A stretch of 64,000 nt of DNA from a bacterium (GCA_030427205.1 JAUHXC010000013.1:70413-134412), one strand, 5' to 3'. Counted from the first letter of the stretch, positions 39,555-47,889 are shown. Made by a program: numbers and translations. Notes: generated by a model not told the origin, from the sequence alone.

Positions 39555-42500
39555 TCAGCTCGGCGGGCGGCCGTGGGTCCGGCGCAGCCGCTCGAGCGCG
39601 TCGCGGGCGTGCCGGGCATCGCGGCCGAGGCCGTCGAGCTGGGCGATCACGAGCTTCCAGGCCCGCGCCGCCCGGCGGGCTTTGCCGGCCGACGTCGCGA
39701 TGCGCGCCGCCCGCTCGGCCATGCGCGGCACATCCGGTTCGAGCAGATCGCTCTGATACAGCGGAGCCAGCCGGCCGAAGACCTCGTCCCACGCCGTCCA
39801 GTCGCCGTCGGTCGCCAGACACGGCAGCAGGCACGCGCGGAAGATGAGCCCCAGCTCCAGGCGGTGGCTGGCGTCGCAGCGGCGGATGACCTGCTCGAAG
39901 CGCTGGCGGGCCTCGGCGCTGCGGGCGGTCTCGAAGAGCACGAGGGCCAGGTTGCCGTCAGCCGCCAGGGCGTCCACCGAGCCCAGCCCGCCATAGAGTC
40001 GGCTGCTCTCGCGGTAGTGGGTCTCGGCGCCGTCGAGATCGCCGCCATAGCGCGCGATGTCGCCGAGCAGGTTCGCCGCGTGCGCCTGGCCCCAGCGGCT
40101 GCCGGCGCGGGCATACGCCGCCCGAGCGCCGGTGGCGTGCTGCCGGGCCATCTCTCGGTCGCCGCTTCGACGGGCCAGATCGGCCAGCGCCGCGAGCACG
40201 TTGGCCCGCATCAACTCGTCGTCGGCGCCCTGGTGTTCGAGGGCGATGCGATACGCCGCCTCGGCGCCGACGGGATCACCCGACGCCAGGCGCATGCCGC
40301 CCTCGAGCAGGCGGGCGTTGGCCTCGAGCGTCGGCTCGCCGGCCGCGGTGGCCCGATGCGCCGCCGCGATGACCAGCGGCAGCCCGTGGGCGATGCCCTT
40401 GGTGGTGCTCATGGCCCGGCCGCGCTCGAGCAGGGCGGTCGACAGGATCCGGTCGTCGCCCAGGCGCTCGGCGTCGACCGTGGCGTGGCGCGCGTGGCGG
40501 GCGGCGTCGGCGGTCGCGCCGCGCACCCAGCACAGCCGGGCCCAGCGCACCCGGGTCACCAGCCACTCGCGGTGCCGTCGCGGCCAGCGCAGCTTGCGCA
40601 ACGCCCGACAGCGGGCGACCAACGCCCGGTGCGCGCCGGCGACCTGCTTGCGGCTCAGCGCGGTATCGGCGGCGTCGAGCAGCGGGGCGAGGCTCTCCGA
40701 CCAGGCCCGGGCGTGCATCAGGTGCCGCGCGCGGCGGGCCGGCGGGCACTGTCGCCGAGCGAGCATCGCCGCGCACGTCCGATGCCCGTCGACGAATCGG
40801 CCGGCGCGACGGGCGTCTTCGAGCAGCGTCTCGCGCAGGGTGGGGTGCCCGAACGACCAGCGGTGCGCGCCATGGCCCGCGAGCAGCCCGGCGTCGAGCA
40901 GGCTGTCGATGACCGCCGCGTCGGTCGGGATGACCCCGGCCTCGGCGCAGACCGCGTGCCACTCGTGGGTATCGACCGTCTGCCCCAGCATGGCCGCGAG
41001 CTCGAGGGCCGGCGTCGGCTCGGGGCCGACGATGTCGGCCAGCCGCTCGCGCCAGATGGAGCGCACCCCGTCGGGCAGAGCGTCGTCGGCGCCCGGACGC
41101 AGCCGAAAACCCGTCGGCCCGTCCTCGAAGGCGCCCTGCGCCAGCCACCGCTCGAGCAGCGCCTCGGCGAAGCGCGGGTTGCCGCCGGCGCGCTCGACGA
41201 CCGTTGCGAGCAGCGCGTCGTCGAGGGGCAGGCGCTCGCCGATCTGGGCGACCATCGCCGCGTCGGAGAGCGGCTGCAGGACCAGCCGCTGTACGCCCGG
41301 CTGGCCGGTGATCCGGTCGAGCAGCTCGCGGACCGTGCCGTCTTCGGTGAGGCCCGCCTCGCGCACGGTGCAGACGAAGAGGATGGGCAGCTCGCGCCGC
41401 GCGGTGAGCACATGGTCGACGAAGCCCAGGGTATCGGTCGACCAGTGTACGTCTTCGAGCAGCAGGATCAGCGGGCGCCGCCGCGCCAGTACCGCGAGGC
41501 CGTCGGCGAGAACCGAGTTGCGCTCGGCCGCCGACGCGATGCGGATGTCGCCGTCCTCCCAGGCGTCTCCCGGCGCGACCAGGGCCGCGATGGCGTCGAC
41601 CAGCCCCGGCTCGACCCGCGAGCCGAAGACCCATTGCACCTGCCGCCGACGCTTGCGGGCGTCGAGCCCGTCGCAGCGCCAGGCGTGACTCAGCATCGGC
41701 CCGAGCCCGCCGTCGGGCCCGGCGGTCGCGTCGTGCTGGGCGACGAAGACATCGGCGACCCCCAGCTCGTGGGCCCGATGCGCCAGCCAGCGCGCCAGCC
41801 GGCTCTTGCCGAGCCCCGACGGCCCGTCGATGACCACCGCCCGGGCCCCATCACCCCGCGCCGACTGCCGCAGCGCCTGCCAGGCGACGTCCTGCTCGGT
41901 CTCGCGCCCGTGCAGCGAGGTGGGCCGCAGACCGAAGAGGCTGCGCCCCACGCCCAACAAAGGCGGCGGCCGGGCCGGCGGCGTCGGTCGGCGCCACGCC
42001 AGCGGGACCGGCGGCCGTCCGAGCAGATCGGGGCCCGCCGCCCAGCTCTCCGCCGAGGTCGACAGGAAGACCGGCGGTGCGACGATCGTGCGGTCGGCCT
42101 CGCTGGGATCGATATACGGCAGGCTGCCGGTGCGCGGTGGCGTCGGCGGCACCGGCGCTTCGTCGGGCAGAGCCATCAGCGCGACCGCCGCGTCGGCGGC
42201 GAACCGGAACCGCTCCGCCGGTCGCTTGGCCAGCAGCCGGTGCAGCCAGCGCTGGAACCCGCGGGGCACCGGCAGGTCGGCGGCGAGCGCGGGCGGCGGG
42301 GCGAGCAGCTGCGATCGGGCCACCTGACTCGCGTCTTTGCCGTCGAACGGCGGCGCGCCCGTGATCAGGGTGTGCGCCAGGCAGCCCAGCGCGTACAGAT
42401 CGGACCACGGGCCGAGCGCCTTGAGATCGCCGGTGACCTGCTCGGGCGACATGTAGTTCGGCGTGCCGGCGAAGGCTTCTTCCCGCGCGTCCGCCGCGCG

Positions 42501-43070
42501 CTCCGCGGTGAAGGCGACCCCGAAGTCGGTCAAGACCGCGCCGCGCTCGGTGAGCAGGATGTTGTCGGGCTTGAGATCGCGATGGATGACGCCCCGGGCG
42601 TGGGCGTGCCCCAGCGCGTCGAGCAGCCCCAGCAGGATCGGCCGCAGCGCATGCCAGGGCAGGCGCGCCGCGCGCCGGGTCAACGGGCCGCCGTCGAGCC
42701 ACTCCATGACCATGAACGGGGCATCCGCCGGCAGCCGGCCGGCCGAGGCGGCGGCCGTCGCCGGGTCGATGCGACCGTGGTCGAAGATGCGCACGACCCC
42801 CGGATGATCGAGGCAGGCGACCGCCCGCAGCTCATGGGCGAACCACGTCCGAAAGGTTTGTTGCCGGCCGACCGGCGCGGTGACCACCTTGACCGCCGCC
42901 GTCGCGCCCTGGCTGACGTGGTGCGCGCGCCAGACCTCGGCCATCGCCCCCCGTCCGGCGGGCGCGTCCAGCTCGAATGGTCCCAGGCGGATCGATGGGG
43001 CGGGCTGCATCGGCGGGAGCATACCAGGGTCGGCAGCCGGTTGGGTGTCGCTGACGACCTTGGGTGTCAT
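39555..43070 (-). CDS. Ser/Thr protein kinase-AAA+(STAND)-TPR protein, paralogue of the 20158-23619 gene
   Basis: Same architecture as the 20158-23619 gene. The paralogy is obvious (AAVKVVTAP vs VAVKIVTAP; FMVMEWLDGGPL vs YLVMEWLDGGPL; HAHARGVIHRDLK vs HAHARGVVHRDLK). Confidence 0.85.
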   Translation of the reverse strand: MTPKVVSDTQPAADPGMLPPMQPAPSIRLGPFELDAPAGRGAMAEVWRAHHVSQGATAAVKVVTAPVGRQQTFRTWFAHELRAVACLDHPGVVRIFDHGRIDPATAAASAGRLPADAPFMVMEWLDGGPLTRRAARLPWHALRPILLGLLDALGHAHARGVIHRDLKPDNILLTERGAVLTDFGVAFTAERAADAREEAFAGTPNYMSPEQVTGDLKALGPWSDLYALGCLAHTLITGAPPFDGKDASQVARSQLLAPPPALAADLPVPRGFQRWLHRLLAKRPAERFRFAADAAVALMALPDEAPVPPTPPRTGSLPYIDPSEADRTIVAPPVFLSTSAESWAAGPDLLGRPPVPLAWRRPTPPARPPPLLGVGRSLFGLRPTSLHGRETEQDVAWQALRQSARGDGARAVVIDGPSGLGKSRLARWLAHRAHELGVADVFVAQHDATAGPDGGLGPMLSHAWRCDGLDARKRRRQVQWVFGSRVEPGLVDAIAALVAPGDAWEDGDIRIASAAERNSVLADGLAVLARRRPLILLLEDVHWSTDTLGFVDHVLTARRELPILFVCTVREAGLTEDGTVRELLDRITGQPGVQRLVLQPLSDAAMVAQIGERLPLDDALLATVVERAGGNPRFAEALLERWLAQGAFEDGPTGFRLRPGADDALPDGVRSIWRERLADIVGPEPTPALELAAMLGQTVDTHEWHAVCAEAGVIPTDAAVIDSLLDAGLLAGHGAHRWSFGHPTLRETLLEDARRAGRFVDGHRTCAAMLARRQCPPARRARHLMHARAWSESLAPLLDAADTALSRKQVAGAHRALVARCRALRKLRWPRRHREWLVTRVRWARLCWVRGATADAARHARHATVDAERLGDDRILSTALLERGRAMSTTKGIAHGLPLVIAAAHRATAAGEPTLEANARLLEGGMRLASGDPVGAEAAYRIALEHQGADDELMRANVLAALADLARRSGDREMARQHATGARAAYARAGSRWGQAHAANLLGDIARYGGDLDGAETHYRESSRLYGGLGSVDALAADGNLALVLFETARSAEARQRFEQVIRRCDASHRLELGLIFRACLLPCLATDGDWTAWDEVFGRLAPLYQSDLLEPDVPRMAERAARIATSAGKARRAARAWKLVIAQLDGLGRDARHARDALERLRRTHGRPPS

Positions 43071-43126
43071 GTCTTATGGGGAACGACGTGCCCGACGGCG
43101 GATTTCGAGTCGTCGCGCACGCTTCG

Positions 43127-43166
43127 AAATAAAAAAGCACCGCCTGCCGGGGGGGATGGCAGACGG
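43127..43166 (-). terminator. rho-independent terminator-like hairpin on the minus strand (CCGTCTGCC-loop-GGCAGGCGG followed by TGCTTTTTTATTT)
   Basis: Seen directly in the sequence. The T-tract is striking in a 70% GC background. It sits ~60 nt upstream of the kinase start and ~350 nt downstream of the methyltransferase stop. Confidence 0.5.
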
Positions 43167-43518
43167 TGCAAGGCTTTCGTCCGTCGAGACCAACGGTCCG
43201 CTGGAAGAAAGAAGGAAAGCACAGCGTGCGCGTTGTGGTCCCGAGGACGAGGGACCCGCACGCTGCGCTTCCGCGCCGGTAGAACCGACGCGGTGGAGAA
43301 CCGGCCGCCGAAACGGCCGATGGGGGGTTCTCTGCTTGCGGATTCAGCCAAGCCTTCAGGCTTCGTCCGCTTGCCGTTGGTGTCATGACTAGGGGAGCAG
43401 TGAGTCGATCTGTCCGGCGGTTTGCAGATTTTTTCTCGATTTCATCGATCCGACCCGCGCAGGGCCGTGTCAGCAGCCCTGCCCGCAGCCCCGCCCGCAG
43501 CCCCGTCAGCCATGCCTG

Positions 43519-44559
43519 TCAGGACGCCGGGACGCCGGCTTCGCAGGCGTCGAGCACGAGCAGATCGACGGGCAGTCCGCCATTGCGCAGGCGGTGGCGC
43601 GCCGCGACCGGTCGCCCCAGCGCCGCGGCGTGACGGGGGGTCGCGCAGAAGACCGCCGCCCGCCACCCCGAGAACGGGCCGGCCAGCAGCGCGGCGAGTC
43701 GGCCGTAGGCGCCGGGTCCGCGGATCCGGCGGCCGTAGGGTGGGTTGCAGACGAGCAGCCCGCTGCTTGCGGGCGGGACCACATCGGCGGCGTCGCCCAC
43801 CGACCAGTCGAGGTCGACCGGCGGTCGAACGCCCGCTCGCTCGGCGTTGCGCATCGCCGCGTCGATCACGGGCCGGTGGCGGTCGTTGCCCCGCAGCACC
43901 GTCGCGATCGCCGGCCGGTCGGGCAGGGGAGTGGGTGCGCACCACGCGGCGCAGGCGAAGTCGCGGTCGATGCCCGGCCAGCGCCCCGCGGCCCGGGTCG
44001 CCGCCTCGATGGGCAGCGTGCCCGAGCCGCACATCGGGTCGACCAGCGCGGTGCCCGGGCGCCATCCCGCCAGCCGCAGAATGCCGGCGGCCAGCGTCTC
44101 TCGCAGCGGCGCCCGCCCGGTCTCCAGCCGCCAGCCGCGGCGGTGGGCCAGCTCGCCGGTGGTATCGACGCTCAGGGTGCAGCGGTCGCGGTGGAGCCGG
44201 GCGAAGAGCGTGCCCGGGCCCGCCGGCACCACCCGCGCCAGCCGCTCGGACACCGCGCCGCTGTGGTACAGCCGCGACTTGCGGCAGGTCACGTTGGGGG
44301 TGAGGCCGCCATAGGGCGACCAGTCGATCGCCGCGGCGCCCTTCATCAGCTGGGTGAAGTCGTGGGCCGGGAAGCGCGCCACCCGCTGCAGGATGCGGTT
44401 GGGCACCGCCAGCATGCGATTGGCCCGCAGCGGATCGCCGCGCAGGTTCACCCCGCCCGGCACCGCCTGCACGTCGGCGAAGCCCGCCTCACGGGCCTCT
44501 TCGGCCGCGGCGTCTTCGAGTCCGGGCCCCGTCGCCGCGAAGAGTCGGGCGCGCTGCAT
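43519..44559 (-). CDS. THUMP-domain RNA (guanine/adenine-N) methyltransferase, RlmL/UPF0020-like
   Basis: The N-terminus MQRARLFAATGPGLEDAAAEEAREAGF is THUMP-like. SAM motifs are present: a D/NPPY-type 'LLVCNPPYGRRI' and a VDPMCGSGT G-loop. Confidence 0.8.
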   Translation of the reverse strand: MQRARLFAATGPGLEDAAAEEAREAGFADVQAVPGGVNLRGDPLRANRMLAVPNRILQRVARFPAHDFTQLMKGAAAIDWSPYGGLTPNVTCRKSRLYHSGAVSERLARVVPAGPGTLFARLHRDRCTLSVDTTGELAHRRGWRLETGRAPLRETLAAGILRLAGWRPGTALVDPMCGSGTLPIEAATRAAGRWPGIDRDFACAAWCAPTPLPDRPAIATVLRGNDRHRPVIDAAMRNAERAGVRPPVDLDWSVGDAADVVPPASSGLLVCNPPYGRRIRGPGAYGRLAALLAGPFSGWRAAVFCATPRHAAALGRPVAARHRLRNGGLPVDLLVLDACEAGVPAS

Positions 44560-44560
44560 A

Positions 44561-45187
44561 TCAGCGGGGTTGGTCGACGACGAAGCGCACCTCGACCGGC
44601 AGATCACCGCCGCCGAGCACGAGCGCGTCGCCGTCCCGCCGGGCGCGATAGCTCAGCGGTGTGCCGCCGTCGGGGGTCAGGATCAGCCGCCCGTCCAGCG
44701 CGCTCCAGGTGCCCTCGGCGTCGGGGATGGGCGGGGCGCCGGGTCCGGTGGGCTGAGCGAGCGCGTAGCGGCCGTCGCCGCGCAGGCGCAGCACGAGCGC
44801 GCCGCCCGGCGCCGTGTGACGCCAGCCGCCGACCCAGGCCAGCGGTCGGGCGGGCGCCGGGTCGCGCACCGGCTCGATGTCGGGCAGGGGCGTCAGCCTG
44901 ATCGGCCCGAAGGCGCTGCCTTCGAGCAGCGCGCCATCGGCGTCGTGGCGCATGGTCAGCCTCAGCTCGCGGCCGCCGGGCGCCTTGAGGATCAGCGCCT
45001 CGCCCTCGGTCCGCCAGCGCAGGGCGGCGCCGCCGAAGATGGCCCGGCCGCCGTCGAGCAGCGCCAGATCGATCCGCCCGTGGGGCACCTCGCCGGCGTA
45101 GCGTCCGGGGGCCGGCGGCGCGCTCAGCAGCAGGGCGGTCAGCACGGGCAGGGTGAGAGGCATCGGGCCGTTCGACTCCATCGGCAC
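44561..45187 (-). CDS. secreted hypothetical protein, co-operonic with the methyltransferase
   Basis: Signal peptide MPLTLPVLTALLLSAPPAPG. Its stop overlaps the methyltransferase start. Confidence 0.5.
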   Translation of the reverse strand: MPMESNGPMPLTLPVLTALLLSAPPAPGRYAGEVPHGRIDLALLDGGRAIFGGAALRWRTEGEALILKAPGGRELRLTMRHDADGALLEGSAFGPIRLTPLPDIEPVRDPAPARPLAWVGGWRHTAPGGALVLRLRGDGRYALAQPTGPGAPPIPDAEGTWSALDGRLILTPDGGTPLSYRARRDGDALVLGGGDLPVEVRFVVDQPR

Positions 45188-45243
45188 GCGCCCGGCGCGA
45201 GGGCATCGTCGCCGGGATCACTCTGCTGTATCATGGCGCCGTC

Positions 45244-45672
45244 GTGCAACGAACCCCCGCCCCGCGCCCGCCGCGCTCCATCCGCCGAATCGTCCGGCTG
45301 CTCGCCCTCGGCGCCGCGCTGTCGACTGGCTGTGAAGACGCCTACGAGGCCGCCCGGGCGCCGCGCATCGACGAGGTCCGCCCCGAGCCGGCGCCGCCCG
45401 GGGCGCGCATCACCCTGGTGGGCAGCGGCTTCGGGCTGCGCGGAGAGCGCGACCGGGTCTGGCTCGGCGAGAGCGAGCTGGCCGTGGAATCGTGGACCGA
45501 CACCGCGGTGTTGGTGCGTCTGCCCGTCCGCGAACCGGGGCTGTCGACCCTGGTGCTGCGGGCCGGCGCTCGGGTCAGCGCCCCGTATCCCTTCGAGGTC
45601 GTCGCCCCGGCGGCGGCCGATCGGGACGCGGTCAGCGGCCCGGCAGACGTCGGATCCGACGGCGCGCGCTGA
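45244..45672 (+). CDS. lipoprotein with IPT/TIG-like domain
   Basis: GTG start. Lipobox LSTGC. The segment ITLVGSGFG is typical of IPT/TIG. Confidence 0.55.
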   Translation: MQRTPAPRPPRSIRRIVRLLALGAALSTGCEDAYEAARAPRIDEVRPEPAPPGARITLVGSGFGLRGERDRVWLGESELAVESWTDTAVLVRLPVREPGLSTLVLRAGARVSAPYPFEVVAPAAADRDAVSGPADVGSDGAR

Positions 45673-45799
45673 AGGTGCGTCGGCCTGCGCTTTTGGGTCG
45701 CAGGTTGGCCCGGGATGGTGTAGGAGATATCATACCTTGACGTACCTCAAACCGGGTGTTATCGCCAAGCCGAGGACCCCGTGCGACAGGACCTGATCC

Positions 45800-46522
45800 A
45801 TGGATAGCATCTTCGTCAACCTGGTCGCGGTGGCCGAAGCCGCGCCCGACATGAGCATCTCGAGCCTGCTGGCCCAGGCCTCGCCGGTGGTCAAGGGGGT
45901 GCTGGTCCTGCTGGTGCTGATGTCGCTGGTGAGCTGGTACATCATCGCCTACAAGTACCTCTACCTGCGGCGGGCGGCGACCGAGTCGTCGCGTTTCCTC
46001 GACATCTTCTGGAAGAACAAGCGCCTCGACGAGATCTACCAGACCACCGGCGAGCTGAAGCACAGCCCGGTCAATCAGGTCTACCGGGCGGGCTACGTCG
46101 AGCTGACCAAGCTCAAGAACGACGCCAACGCCGGCGATACGATGCACGGCCAGCTCGGCAACCTCGAGAATATCGAGCGCGCCCTGCGCCGCGCGCGCAC
46201 CGCCGAGGCGGTGCACCTCGAGTCGATGACCGGCTTCCTGGCGACCACCGCCTCGGCGGCGCCCTTCGTCGGCCTCTTCGGCACCGTATGGGGCATCATG
46301 GTCGCCTTCATCGACATCGCCAAGAAGGGCGACGCGACGCTGATCACGGTGGCGCCCGGCATCGCCGAGGCGCTCATCGCCACCGCCCTCGGGCTGGTCG
46401 CCGCGATCCCCGCGGTGGTGTTCTACAACTTCTTTCACAACAAGATGCGGGTGCTCGAAGCCGACATGGAGAACTTCGAGGCCGACTTCCTCAACATCGT
46501 CAAGCGCCACTTCTTCAAGTAG
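45800..46522 (+). CDS. tolQ: TolQ (MotA/TolQ/ExbB proton-channel protein)
   Basis: Three TM helices and the conserved C-terminal region ...TVAPGIAEALIATALGLVAAIPAVVFYN... Confidence 0.9.
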   Translation: MDSIFVNLVAVAEAAPDMSISSLLAQASPVVKGVLVLLVLMSLVSWYIIAYKYLYLRRAATESSRFLDIFWKNKRLDEIYQTTGELKHSPVNQVYRAGYVELTKLKNDANAGDTMHGQLGNLENIERALRRARTAEAVHLESMTGFLATTASAAPFVGLFGTVWGIMVAFIDIAKKGDATLITVAPGIAEALIATALGLVAAIPAVVFYNFFHNKMRVLEADMENFEADFLNIVKRHFFK

Positions 46523-46546
46523 GCCGCAGGGGAGGGGAGGTCAGCC

Positions 46547-47044
46547 ATGGGCATGAGCACAGGCGGTCGCGGCCGACTCAGCGACATCAACGTCACCCCG
46601 CTCGTCGACGTCATGCTGGTGCTGCTGGTGGTCTTCATGATCACCACCCCGATGATCGTCGAGGAGATGCAGCAGCGGCAGGTGGACGTCGACCTGCCGA
46701 GCACGACCAGTGAGAAGCCGGTCAAGCCCAGCGAGCTGAAGACCATCATCGTGCTCAAGGGCGACTTCACCGTCGGCCTCGACACCGGCCAGGAAGAAGG
46801 CGGGGTCAGCACGTTGGCCGATTGCACCGAGGCCGCGGCCAGCGGCACCTTCGGCGGCTGCCTCGACGGCATGGACGAGAAGCTCAAGGCCAACCCCAAG
46901 CTCAAGGACGCCGGCCGCATCTTCCTCATGGCCGACCGCAAGCTGCCCTACGGCTTCGTCGTCGACGTGATGGCCCGCCTGCGCAACGCCGGGCTGGTCA
47001 ACCTGGGCATGGTCACCAACCCGCCCGACGGGTCGTCCGGATGA
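46547..47044 (+). CDS. tolR: TolR (ExbD/TolR family)
   Basis: INVTPLVDVMLVLLVVFM N-terminal TM segment with the conserved Asp. Confidence 0.85.
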   Translation: MGMSTGGRGRLSDINVTPLVDVMLVLLVVFMITTPMIVEEMQQRQVDVDLPSTTSEKPVKPSELKTIIVLKGDFTVGLDTGQEEGGVSTLADCTEAAASGTFGGCLDGMDEKLKANPKLKDAGRIFLMADRKLPYGFVVDVMARLRNAGLVNLGMVTNPPDGSSG

Positions 47045-47889
47045 CCGGCGTCGCCCGCGATACCGGCCTCAAGACCGTCTCGACGGTCATCGCCGGGCTG
47101 GTCAACGGCCTGATCTTCACGGGCATGGCCATGGCCGGGTTGAGCCACGAGGAGCCGCCACCCGAGCTCGAGCCCCTGTCGTTCGTCGAGGTCACCCTCA
47201 TCCCCAAGCTGGGGACCAAGCCGCCCGACCCCAAGGCCCTGCCGCGCATCGTCGAGCCGGCCCCACCGCCGCCGCCCACCGACGAGGAGATCTCGCTCAG
47301 CCGCGAGAAAGAAGAAGAGCTGGAGCGCGAGCGGGAGCGCAAGAAGGAAGAGGAGCGCATCGAGGCGGAGCGCAAGCGGCAGGAAGAAGAGGCCCGCAAG
47401 AAGAAAGAGCGCGAGGACGAACGCCGCCGCGAGGAGGACGAGCGTCGGCGCAAGAAGGCCATGGAGCAGGCGCTCAATCGGGCCACCGACCCCCGCGCCG
47501 ACGACGAGGACGCCCCCGGCTTCGAAGAGGGCAGCGCGGTCGGCAACTCGCTCGACCCCAACTCGATCCGCAACAAGCAGCTCTACATCGCCCAGCTCAT
47601 GGTGGCCCTCAAGAGCCAGTTCGAGGTGCCCAGCGTCATCCCCGACGACGTGCGCAAGCGCCTCAAGGCCACCGTCTCGTTCAAGATCAACGCCCAGGGC
47701 AAAGTCGTCGGCGAGCCGCGCCTGCTTCAAAGCAGCGGGAACAAGTTCTTCGACGCAGCCGCTTTGAGCACCGTACGCAAGTTCGGCCCCGGCTCGGCGC
47801 TGCGCATCCCGCTGCCCACCGACGAGAAGCTGCGCAAGGAGGTCCTGCGCGTCGGCCTCAAGCCGATCATGCACGGCAAGGAACTTTGA
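47041..47889 (+). CDS. TolA-like (or TonB-like) energy transducer with a Glu/Arg/Lys-rich helical linker
   Basis: ATGA overlap with tolR. TM anchor, a proline-rich segment, an EERKRQEEEARKKKERE linker, and a C-terminal TolA/TonB-like domain. Located upstream of tolB. Confidence 0.6.
   Translation: MTGVARDTGLKTVSTVIAGLVNGLIFTGMAMAGLSHEEPPPELEPLSFVEVTLIPKLGTKPPDPKALPRIVEPAPPPPPTDEEISLSREKEEELERERERKKEEERIEAERKRQEEEARKKKEREDERRREEDERRRKKAMEQALNRATDPRADDEDAPGFEEGSAVGNSLDPNSIRNKQLYIAQLMVALKSQFEVPSVIPDDVRKRLKATVSFKINAQGKVVGEPRLLQSSGNKFFDAAALSTVRKFGPGSALRIPLPTDEKLRKEVLRVGLKPIMHGKEL

Follow-up and report, generated by a model that had tools for sequence, protein, structure and literature searches.

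A previously uncatalogued structured non-coding RNA gene downstream of a methyltransferase gene in uncultured Myxococcota-like bacteria

What does an AT-richer gap between two genes encode in a stretch of bacterial DNA with a GC content of about 75%? The DNA analysed here, referred to as the window, comprises 64,000 nucleotides (nt) from a bacterium (GCA_030427205.1, JAUHXC010000013.1:70413-134412). The gap, at positions 43071-43518, lies between two open reading frames (ORFs) on the minus strand, and the original prediction, made from the sequence alone, had described it as a low-GC, non-coding island with terminator-like hairpins on both strands that might contain a small RNA (sRNA). The dip in composition was confirmed, since the GC content was 63.5-64.5% over 43000-43499 as compared to 72-79% in the flanks. 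The gap holds a previously uncatalogued structured non-coding RNA gene, which is present on the minus strand only. The gene is 256 nt in length (43127-43382, minus strand) and runs from the first conserved transcribed block, CACCAACGG, through the end of a run of uridines (U-run); we infer that its 5' end is placed to within about 4 nt.

Homologous loci were recovered using the protein encoded by the upstream neighbor, an RNA methyltransferase, as a handle, and were compared by BLASTN and by alignment. Ten other distinct loci were found to contain the RNA, nine in full (L001, a metagenome-assembled genome (MAG); L003, which is identical to L004 and L005; L006, L021, L022, L023, L026, L027 and L028) and one, L007, with the core only. 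All of the loci are metagenome contigs or MAGs from uncultured Myxococcota-like bacteria, and the sources that name methyltransferase homologues at 62-64% identity give 'Myxococcales bacterium'. Sequencing runs in which the element is present are SRR27848620, SRR26421930, SRR30765335, SRR28981850, SRR24874945, SRR25343203 and SRR27422806. The RNA lies directly downstream of the same methyltransferase gene at every one of the 11 loci. In group 1 (the window, L021, L022, L001, L003 and L006), the RNA is 89-94% identical, as against 76-81% nucleotide identity for the methyltransferase coding sequence (CDS), while in group 2 (L023, L026, L027 and L028) the corresponding values are 74-78% and 71-74%. 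The most divergent sequence, L007, keeps only the hairpins designated P3, P4 and P5 and a C/U-rich tract. The flanking genes could have been conserved without the RNA, a pattern that would have spoken against the original prediction; instead, the RNA was kept in all ten of the other loci. Past the U-run the identity drops at once to 55-69% over short alignments, a level taken, with no shuffled control behind it, as the background for short GC-rich stretches.

A covariance model (CM) of the RNA, R1, built from the alignment, scored 290.8 bits at 43127-43382 on the minus strand, the sole copy in the window. It scored 257-296 bits in nine of the other loci and 134.6 bits in L007, with one copy per homologous locus and no paralogues. 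Three methyltransferase homologues at 60-62% identity (L008, L024 and L029) are followed by no intergenic gap, and R1 found no RNA there; all loci in which the RNA was seen have a gap free of genes behind the methyltransferase gene. A search of genome contigs with the methyltransferase gave one useful relative, L001; L002 was too distant and lacked the RNA. A scan of metagenome contigs with an exact invariant 20-mer, CCGGTTCTCCACCGCGTCGG, returned 12 loci, all of which matched by chance and consist of unrelated DNA that seems to be mostly coding; it missed L021, a JGI contig with one single-nucleotide polymorphism in that 20-mer.

Several lines of evidence support the conclusion that the RNA forms five hairpins (P2-P6) followed by a terminator hairpin. 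The fold of the minus strand gave a z-score of -4.9, with none of 100 shuffled sequences folding as well, while the plus strand gave -1.7. RNAalifold applied to the 11 sequences returned a fold with several hairpins and 74 pairs, of which 26 showed compensatory changes. The structure was curated on an alignment designated A4 as a short P1, P2, P3, P4, P5, the C/U tract, P6, a purine-rich linker and the terminator. When it was assessed on a MAFFT alignment with the terminator left out, 99.1% of 650 cells fell in standard pairs, as opposed to 33-44% when the 3' partners were slid by 1-3 columns. Changes on both sides were found in 22 of 65 pairs, and the observed covariation score was reached by none of 500 shuffles. 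The terminator was omitted from this count because the group 2 sequences had been aligned out of register there by MAFFT. In the CM-guided alignment, A6, 34 of 77 pairs had changes on both sides and 99.3% of the cells were paired, a tally that includes 8 of the 12 terminator pairs; the MAFFT result is the more conservative, since A6 leans towards the model. Many of the conserved pairs are G-U, and their plus-strand equivalents are C-A mismatches. Consequently, these pairs, together with the terminator and the boxes found upstream, assign the RNA to the minus strand.

The region was covered by ORFs of 94 and 184 amino acids (aa) on the minus strand and of 170 aa on the plus strand; the single 78-aa ORF described earlier was not reproduced. 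Although these open frames span the region, it is extremely improbable that a small protein is encoded there. All six frames are open at every locus as a result of the high GC content, the RNA in the window, read from its sequence, has no ATG, and the substitutions follow the base pairs rather than the codons. Moreover, insertions and deletions of 1 and 2 nt between close relatives switch the frame and no frame is shared among the loci, observations on which coding potential was rejected. The lack of a conserved reading frame is as expected of a trans-acting sRNA.

The RNA opens with a single-stranded block, CACCAACGGCAA (43371-43382), that is invariant in 10 of the 11 loci; all positions in the RNA refer to the minus strand. 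The conserved RNA starts with CACCAACGG (43382-43374). P2 (43338-43370) has changes on both sides in 6 of 14 pairs in the MAFFT alignment and in 10 of 14 in the CM alignment. In P3 (43296-43332) the outer 7 base pairs (bp), GAGAACC/GGUUCUC, are invariant, while the inner 6-bp stem covaries; its asymmetric internal loop, CCCCAUC (43325-43319), is also invariant, with a predicted unpaired probability of at least 0.7-0.9. P4 (43271-43293) is a 9-bp hairpin in which 3 of the 9 pairs changed on both sides and 100% of the cells are paired. P5 (43217-43270) comprises 14 + 6 bp, with both-side changes in 11 of the 20 pairs and, again, 100% of the cells paired; it has an internal loop, ACAACG, on the 3' side and an invariant apical loop, UCGUCCUC (43250-43243). 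The long imperfect hairpin that had been noted at 43224-43263 is part of P5 and thus real, but with its 20 bp and internal loop (43270-43217) it is longer than described.

The C/U tract follows at 43203-43219. It reads CUUUCCUUCUUUCUUCC in the window and GCCCUCCUUCUUUCUUCC in most relatives, and the UCCUUC within it is invariant. The purine run GGAAGAAAGAAGGAAAG of the original prediction is the plus-strand reading of the same positions. The version found in most relatives includes CCUCCUU, which is complementary to a strong Shine-Dalgarno (SD) sequence, and the tract is partly unpaired in the predicted fold ensemble. P6 (43190-43204) has the form CCAGCG-GAC-CGUUGG, and is separated from the terminator by a nearly invariant purine-rich linker, UCUCGACGGACGAAAGCCUU (43170-43189), that in the predicted folds pairs with part of the C/U tract in group 1 and with the U-rich strand after the first of the two 3' hairpins (hairpin 1) in group 2.

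The RNA ends, as do trans-acting sRNAs, in an intrinsic terminator (43127-43169). This minus-strand terminator had been recognized earlier with a stem of 9 bp; the element is real, but the stem, GCACCGUCUGCC (43169-43158) paired with GGCAGGCGGUGC (43148-43137), has 12 bp, 8 of which show changes on both sides in the CM alignment. The loop, AUCCCCCCC (43157-43149), has a predicted unpaired probability of at least 0.9 and the general form (A/C)CCCCCCC, and the U-run is UUUUUUAUUU (43136-43127). A scan with promoter and terminator consensus sequences missed this main terminator because its loop is 9 nt long and the limit of the scan was 8. In group 2 another hairpin follows in tandem; its loop is UCC(U/A)CCUCCCCCC (UCCUCCUCCCCCC) and it is followed by a U-run (L023, 4315-4372; L026, 2523-2575; L027, 4317-4370; L028, 4318-4372). 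Since the purine linker is predicted to pair with the U-rich strand after hairpin 1 in these sequences, hairpin 2 is probably the real terminator of group 2. The 3' domain of L007 is unlike that of the other ten; downstream of the core (1490-1600) it contains two copies of a 17-nt sequence, GCATGCCCTCCTGACAT, at a distance of about 80 nt.

The 75 nt upstream of the RNA could be aligned without gaps in all 11 loci. Three invariant blocks were found at a constant spacing, separated by freely varying spacers, in the arrangement GAAAAAA-N13-CGGACA-N17-CCCTAGTC-N5-CACCAACGG. The first, a G followed by an A-tract (43429-43435, minus strand), is invariant in the 11 loci, resembles an UP element and lies 13 nt upstream of CGGACA. 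The second, CGGACA (43411-43416, minus strand), is -35-like and its GGACA is invariant in the 11 loci. The third, CCCTAGTC (43387-43394, minus strand), is -10-like and likewise invariant; 17 nt separate it from CGGACA and 5 variable nt from the RNA block. Invariant blocks joined by free spacers of constant length are the type of conservation seen in promoters and not that of RNA structure. The sequence therefore suggests that the blocks are the RNA's own promoter, and from the invariant spacing of the three boxes and the differing downstream genes in L001 and L007 we infer that the RNA is probably its own transcription unit.

These blocks also account for the short plus-strand stem followed by TTTTTTC (43408-43435) that had been taken for a second terminator. 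The letters are there, but the scan made no call and the stem is not conserved. The T-run is the complement of the invariant A-tract upstream of the minus-strand RNA, and the whole stretch that of the A-tract and CGGACA box, so that the terminator reading is an artefact and was rejected. Overall, the sRNA suspected between the two minus-strand genes was borne out by ten homologues, compensatory pairs, conservation bounded by the terminator, promoter-like blocks and the lack of a frame, although for the minus strand only.

The invariant 5' end, ACCAACGG (43381-43374), has two possible partners. It can form the 3-bp P1, or an 8-bp long-range helix with its perfect complement, CCGUUGGU, which is also the 3' arm of P6. 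Consequently, the internal CCAGCGG and the 5' end compete for CCGUUGG(U) (43188-43204, minus strand). Constrained folding favored the long-range helix over P6 by 0.6-9 kcal/mol in 10 of 10 full-length homologues, and the helix was part of the minimum free energy structure in group 2 and L021. In L007, however, P6 is rebuilt as CCACGG-UUUUCUU-CCGUGG by two changes on both sides, while the long-range helix gains an A-G mismatch. Covariation thus does not choose between P6 and the long-range helix. On the basis of these folding models, the competition may act as a conformational switch that gates the C/U tract.

Upstream of the RNA, the methyltransferase gene (43519-44607, minus strand) encodes a THUMP/RlmL-type class I S-adenosylmethionine-dependent RNA methyltransferase; PF01170 and PF22020 are present in all close homologues. 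Downstream lies an ORF of 1171 aa (39555-43070, minus strand) for a Ser/Thr kinase that also has AAA_16 and TPR regions; the domains Pkinase, AAA_16 and TPR_12 were read from the homologue in L023. Its start codon lies 56-57 nt past the U-run in the window, with no obvious SD sequence ahead of the ATG and, judged by eye, no G-rich site in the start region. The spacer between them (43071-43126, minus strand), which relatives do not conserve, contains a hairpin-capable GACGAC...GUCGU segment. Of the 10 other loci, 7 have the kinase gene downstream, and L001 and L007 have an unrelated gene in that position, of the Dus family in the latter; the L003 contig ends before any downstream gene, so that the kinase could not be assessed there.

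Other features of the neighborhood were observed as well. A 12-nt tandem repeat, GCAGCCCCGCCC, is present in 2.8 copies on the plus strand (43473-43505), between the methyltransferase stop codon and the boxes upstream of the RNA. In the group 2 loci the whole spacer from stop codon to boxes is gone and the A-tract directly follows the methyltransferase stop. The window (44561-47889), L003, L023, L027 and L028 share a gene order of TonB-like, ExbD, ExbB (MotA_ExbB), a small TIG-domain protein, a hypothetical protein, the methyltransferase, the RNA and the kinase. The ExbB/ExbD/TonB block of the window has a GC content of 61-66%, distinctly below that of its surroundings.

The function that we favor, although its chances of being correct are only about even, is the translational repression of multiple targets in trans, in which C/U-rich segments of the RNA would act on G-rich or SD regions. 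The RNA would be transcribed from its own promoter (the A-tract, CGGACA and CCCTAGTC) up to the strong intrinsic terminator, and its fold would present several C- or C/U-rich, anti-SD-like segments, to which group 2 adds the UCCUCCUCCCCCC loop of its second hairpin. The partners of these segments would be G-rich or SD sequences around the translation starts of several mRNAs encoded at other places in the genome, and the pairing would block ribosome binding and alter mRNA stability. This reading rests on three observations. The segments CCCCAUC in P3, the P5 apical loop UCGUCCUC, CCCUCCUUCU... in the C/U tract and the CCCCCCC terminator loop are invariant and predicted to be single-stranded, with unpaired probabilities mostly of at least 0.7-0.9; the C-runs of the P3 loop, the P5 loop and the terminator (CCCCCC(C)), invariant or nearly so, resemble the conserved single-stranded C-runs of the C-rich-loop sRNAs. 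The Rfam resemblances detailed below are only to C-rich-loop sRNAs. Finally, experiments on two of these have shown that sX13 represses mRNAs with G-rich motifs at ribosome-binding sites or near start codons, requires its C-rich loop motifs and does not need Hfq (PMC3771888), and that 6C's C-rich loops bind directly to multiple mRNAs in an organism of high GC content, without chaperones (PMC6486639).

Other observations weigh against trans-acting repression. The sample consists of 11 sequences from one clade, which gives the 'invariant' loops limited weight. In length the RNA exceeds the C-rich-loop sRNA families that it resembles about twofold, and its 256 nt, invariant 7-bp P3 stem, near-invariant linkers and 5' end exceed the needs of an sRNA that pairs through a seed, which hints at a protein partner or another function. 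A simple sigma-70 consensus scan did not call the upstream boxes, the match being too poor, and the stretch from the methyltransferase stop codon to the RNA showed no terminator, as would suit read-through followed by processing. Wherever a downstream gene could be seen, it shares the strand of the RNA, and in the window as well as in 7 of the 10 other loci this gene encodes the kinase, which bears on a role in cis.

The size of the RNA and the constancy of the outer stem of P3, the linkers and the 5' end make a protein partner the main rival, albeit a rather unlikely one. The core, P2-P5, perhaps closed by the long-range helix of the 5' end, would serve as a scaffold that binds and titrates or guides a protein, the C/U segments being protein sites. 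It would explain why the P3 outer stem and internal loop, the apical loop of P5 and the linkers stay constant even where the neighboring gene has fallen to 64% aa identity, why the RNA is about twice as large as a typical C-rich-loop sRNA and more conserved than the adjacent CDS among close relatives, and why a helix could close it from the 5' end to position ~190. However, beyond the methyltransferase and, usually, the kinase there is no consistently linked partner gene, and no match to 6S, Y RNA, CsrB-type or signal recognition particle (SRP) RNA was found; GGA motifs are few, so that the RNA is not Csr-like, and the multi-branched fold is not that of 6S RNA.

Somewhat less probable is a leader that acts in cis on the kinase gene in the manner of a riboswitch or attenuator, with a structured domain that would sense a signal and a terminator that would decide read-through. 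The constant strand of the downstream gene and the frequency of the kinase, the large structured domain followed by a terminator that, in the window, precedes the start of the kinase gene by only 57 nt, and the near-isoenergetic alternative pairings of the 5' end are all compatible with such a leader. Nevertheless, L001 retains the whole RNA and L007 its core despite unrelated downstream genes, the next start codon is anywhere from 57 to about 350 nt away across an unconserved spacer, group 2 has two tandem modules of hairpin and U-run, and there is no match to a known class of aptamer. Covariation links the terminator arms to each other only, inspection of groups 1 and 2 revealed no conserved complement to either arm, and the only conserved alternative pairing, that of the 5' end with the arm of P6, leaves the terminator uninvolved. 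Lacking both a constant downstream gene family and a conserved antiterminator, the RNA was not classed as a riboswitch or attenuator. A shade less probable still is a sensor formed by the ~190-nt core, in which the competition between the 5' end and CCAGCGG for CCGUUGG(U) would be the switch that exposes or buries the anti-SD-like C/U tract. The RNA would then be a signal- or protein-responsive riboregulator acting in trans, or a new type of ribonucleoprotein, specific to the uncultured Myxococcota clade and genomically coupled to the RNA methyltransferase and Ser/Thr kinase. It is very unlikely that the RNA is functionless, being merely the 3' untranslated region plus terminator that belong to the methyltransferase gene. 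Its position directly behind that gene at all loci, the missing terminator between them and, in group 2, the A-tract immediately after the stop codon would be accommodated, but a passive region would not be expected to be conserved 10-15 points above the CDS, to keep at least 65 pairs outside the terminator by compensatory changes, or to be preceded by three invariant boxes at fixed spacing with free spacers.

The favored assignment, a trans-acting repressor with C/U-rich pairing segments, has to be set against the RNA families already known. Rfam 15 gave no match at gathering score anywhere in the 64-kb window, the gap included. With permissive settings the best sub-threshold scores for the region were 27.3 bits for 6C (threshold 47) and 21.5 bits for sX13 (threshold 50), and those for the homologue L023 were 32.1, 26.2 and 26.1 bits. 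Altogether, sub-threshold resemblances were obtained to 6C (27-32 bits), sX13 (21-26 bits), ar7 (26 bits), ar14, CcsR1 and Atu_C7, and these involve the 3' hairpins only. Membership of all six families was rejected, the scores being well below gathering and the covarying core of ~190 nt having no counterpart. The SRP RNA models had no match on either strand even at E <= 10, in agreement with the earlier remark that a partial likeness to SRP RNA did not hold up. There was no match to 6S RNA, and the fold supported by covariation is multi-branched rather than rod-like. The only match to Ms1 was on the wrong strand, with 17.5 bits against a threshold of 162, and ARAGORN found no transfer or transfer-messenger RNA. 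A retron, an omega-RNA and a CRISPR-type RNA were dropped, there being no reverse transcriptase, TnpB/IscB or cas gene among the gene calls of the loci.

The likeness to sX13 (RF02232, Xanthomonadaceae) consists of the intrinsic terminator at the end, several hairpins with C-run loops and the sub-threshold CM resemblance over the 3' hairpins (21.5 and 26.1 bits). However, the score is far below the 50-bit gathering threshold, sX13 has 115 nt and three simple hairpins as compared to 256 nt and a covarying five-hairpin core for which sX13 has no counterpart, and both the phylum and the genomic context differ. With 6C (RF01066, Actinobacteria) the RNA shares a high-GC organism and hairpins with UCCCCCC-type loops, and 6C was the best sub-threshold Rfam match for the terminator region (27.3 and 32.1 bits); nevertheless, this is below the 47 bits required, only the last ~90 nt align, and 6C is an actinobacterial RNA of 75 nt. 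CcsR1-4, or 'cuckoo', RNAs and the alphaproteobacterial ar7 and ar14 have anti-SD-like CCUCCUCCC hairpin loops, to which the loop of the second hairpin in group 2, UCCUCCUCCCCCC, is similar, and are likewise built of tandem modules. They scored 14.5-26 bits against gathering thresholds of 58-65, and there is no upstream DUF1127 gene here. The CcsR/'cuckoo' and ar7/ar14 RNAs consist of repeated hairpin modules only. RNAIII of Staphylococcus aureus is likewise a large regulatory RNA of many hairpins, several of whose C-rich loops pair with the SD regions of different mRNAs, but RNAIII has 514 nt, encodes delta-haemolysin, belongs to the Firmicutes and has no known sequence or structural homology to the present RNA.

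The RNA is therefore best filed as a new family, so far restricted to a narrow clade of uncultured Myxococcota-like bacteria, with a mechanism that would be most like that of the C-rich-loop, anti-SD sRNAs. With 256 nt and about 77 bp, 34 of them with compensatory changes among only 11 sequences, it is a structured family with no Rfam model, in a poorly known high-GC lineage of a phylum from which, to our knowledge, few regulatory RNAs have been described, and R1 can be used to annotate its gene in metagenomes. If its exposed segments are indeed anti-SD seeds, simple seed pairing would not be enough to explain why the conserved core is so unusually large and why pairings compete for the 5' end, and the C-rich-loop strategy of Xanthomonas, actinobacteria, alphaproteobacteria and staphylococci would reach another phylum.

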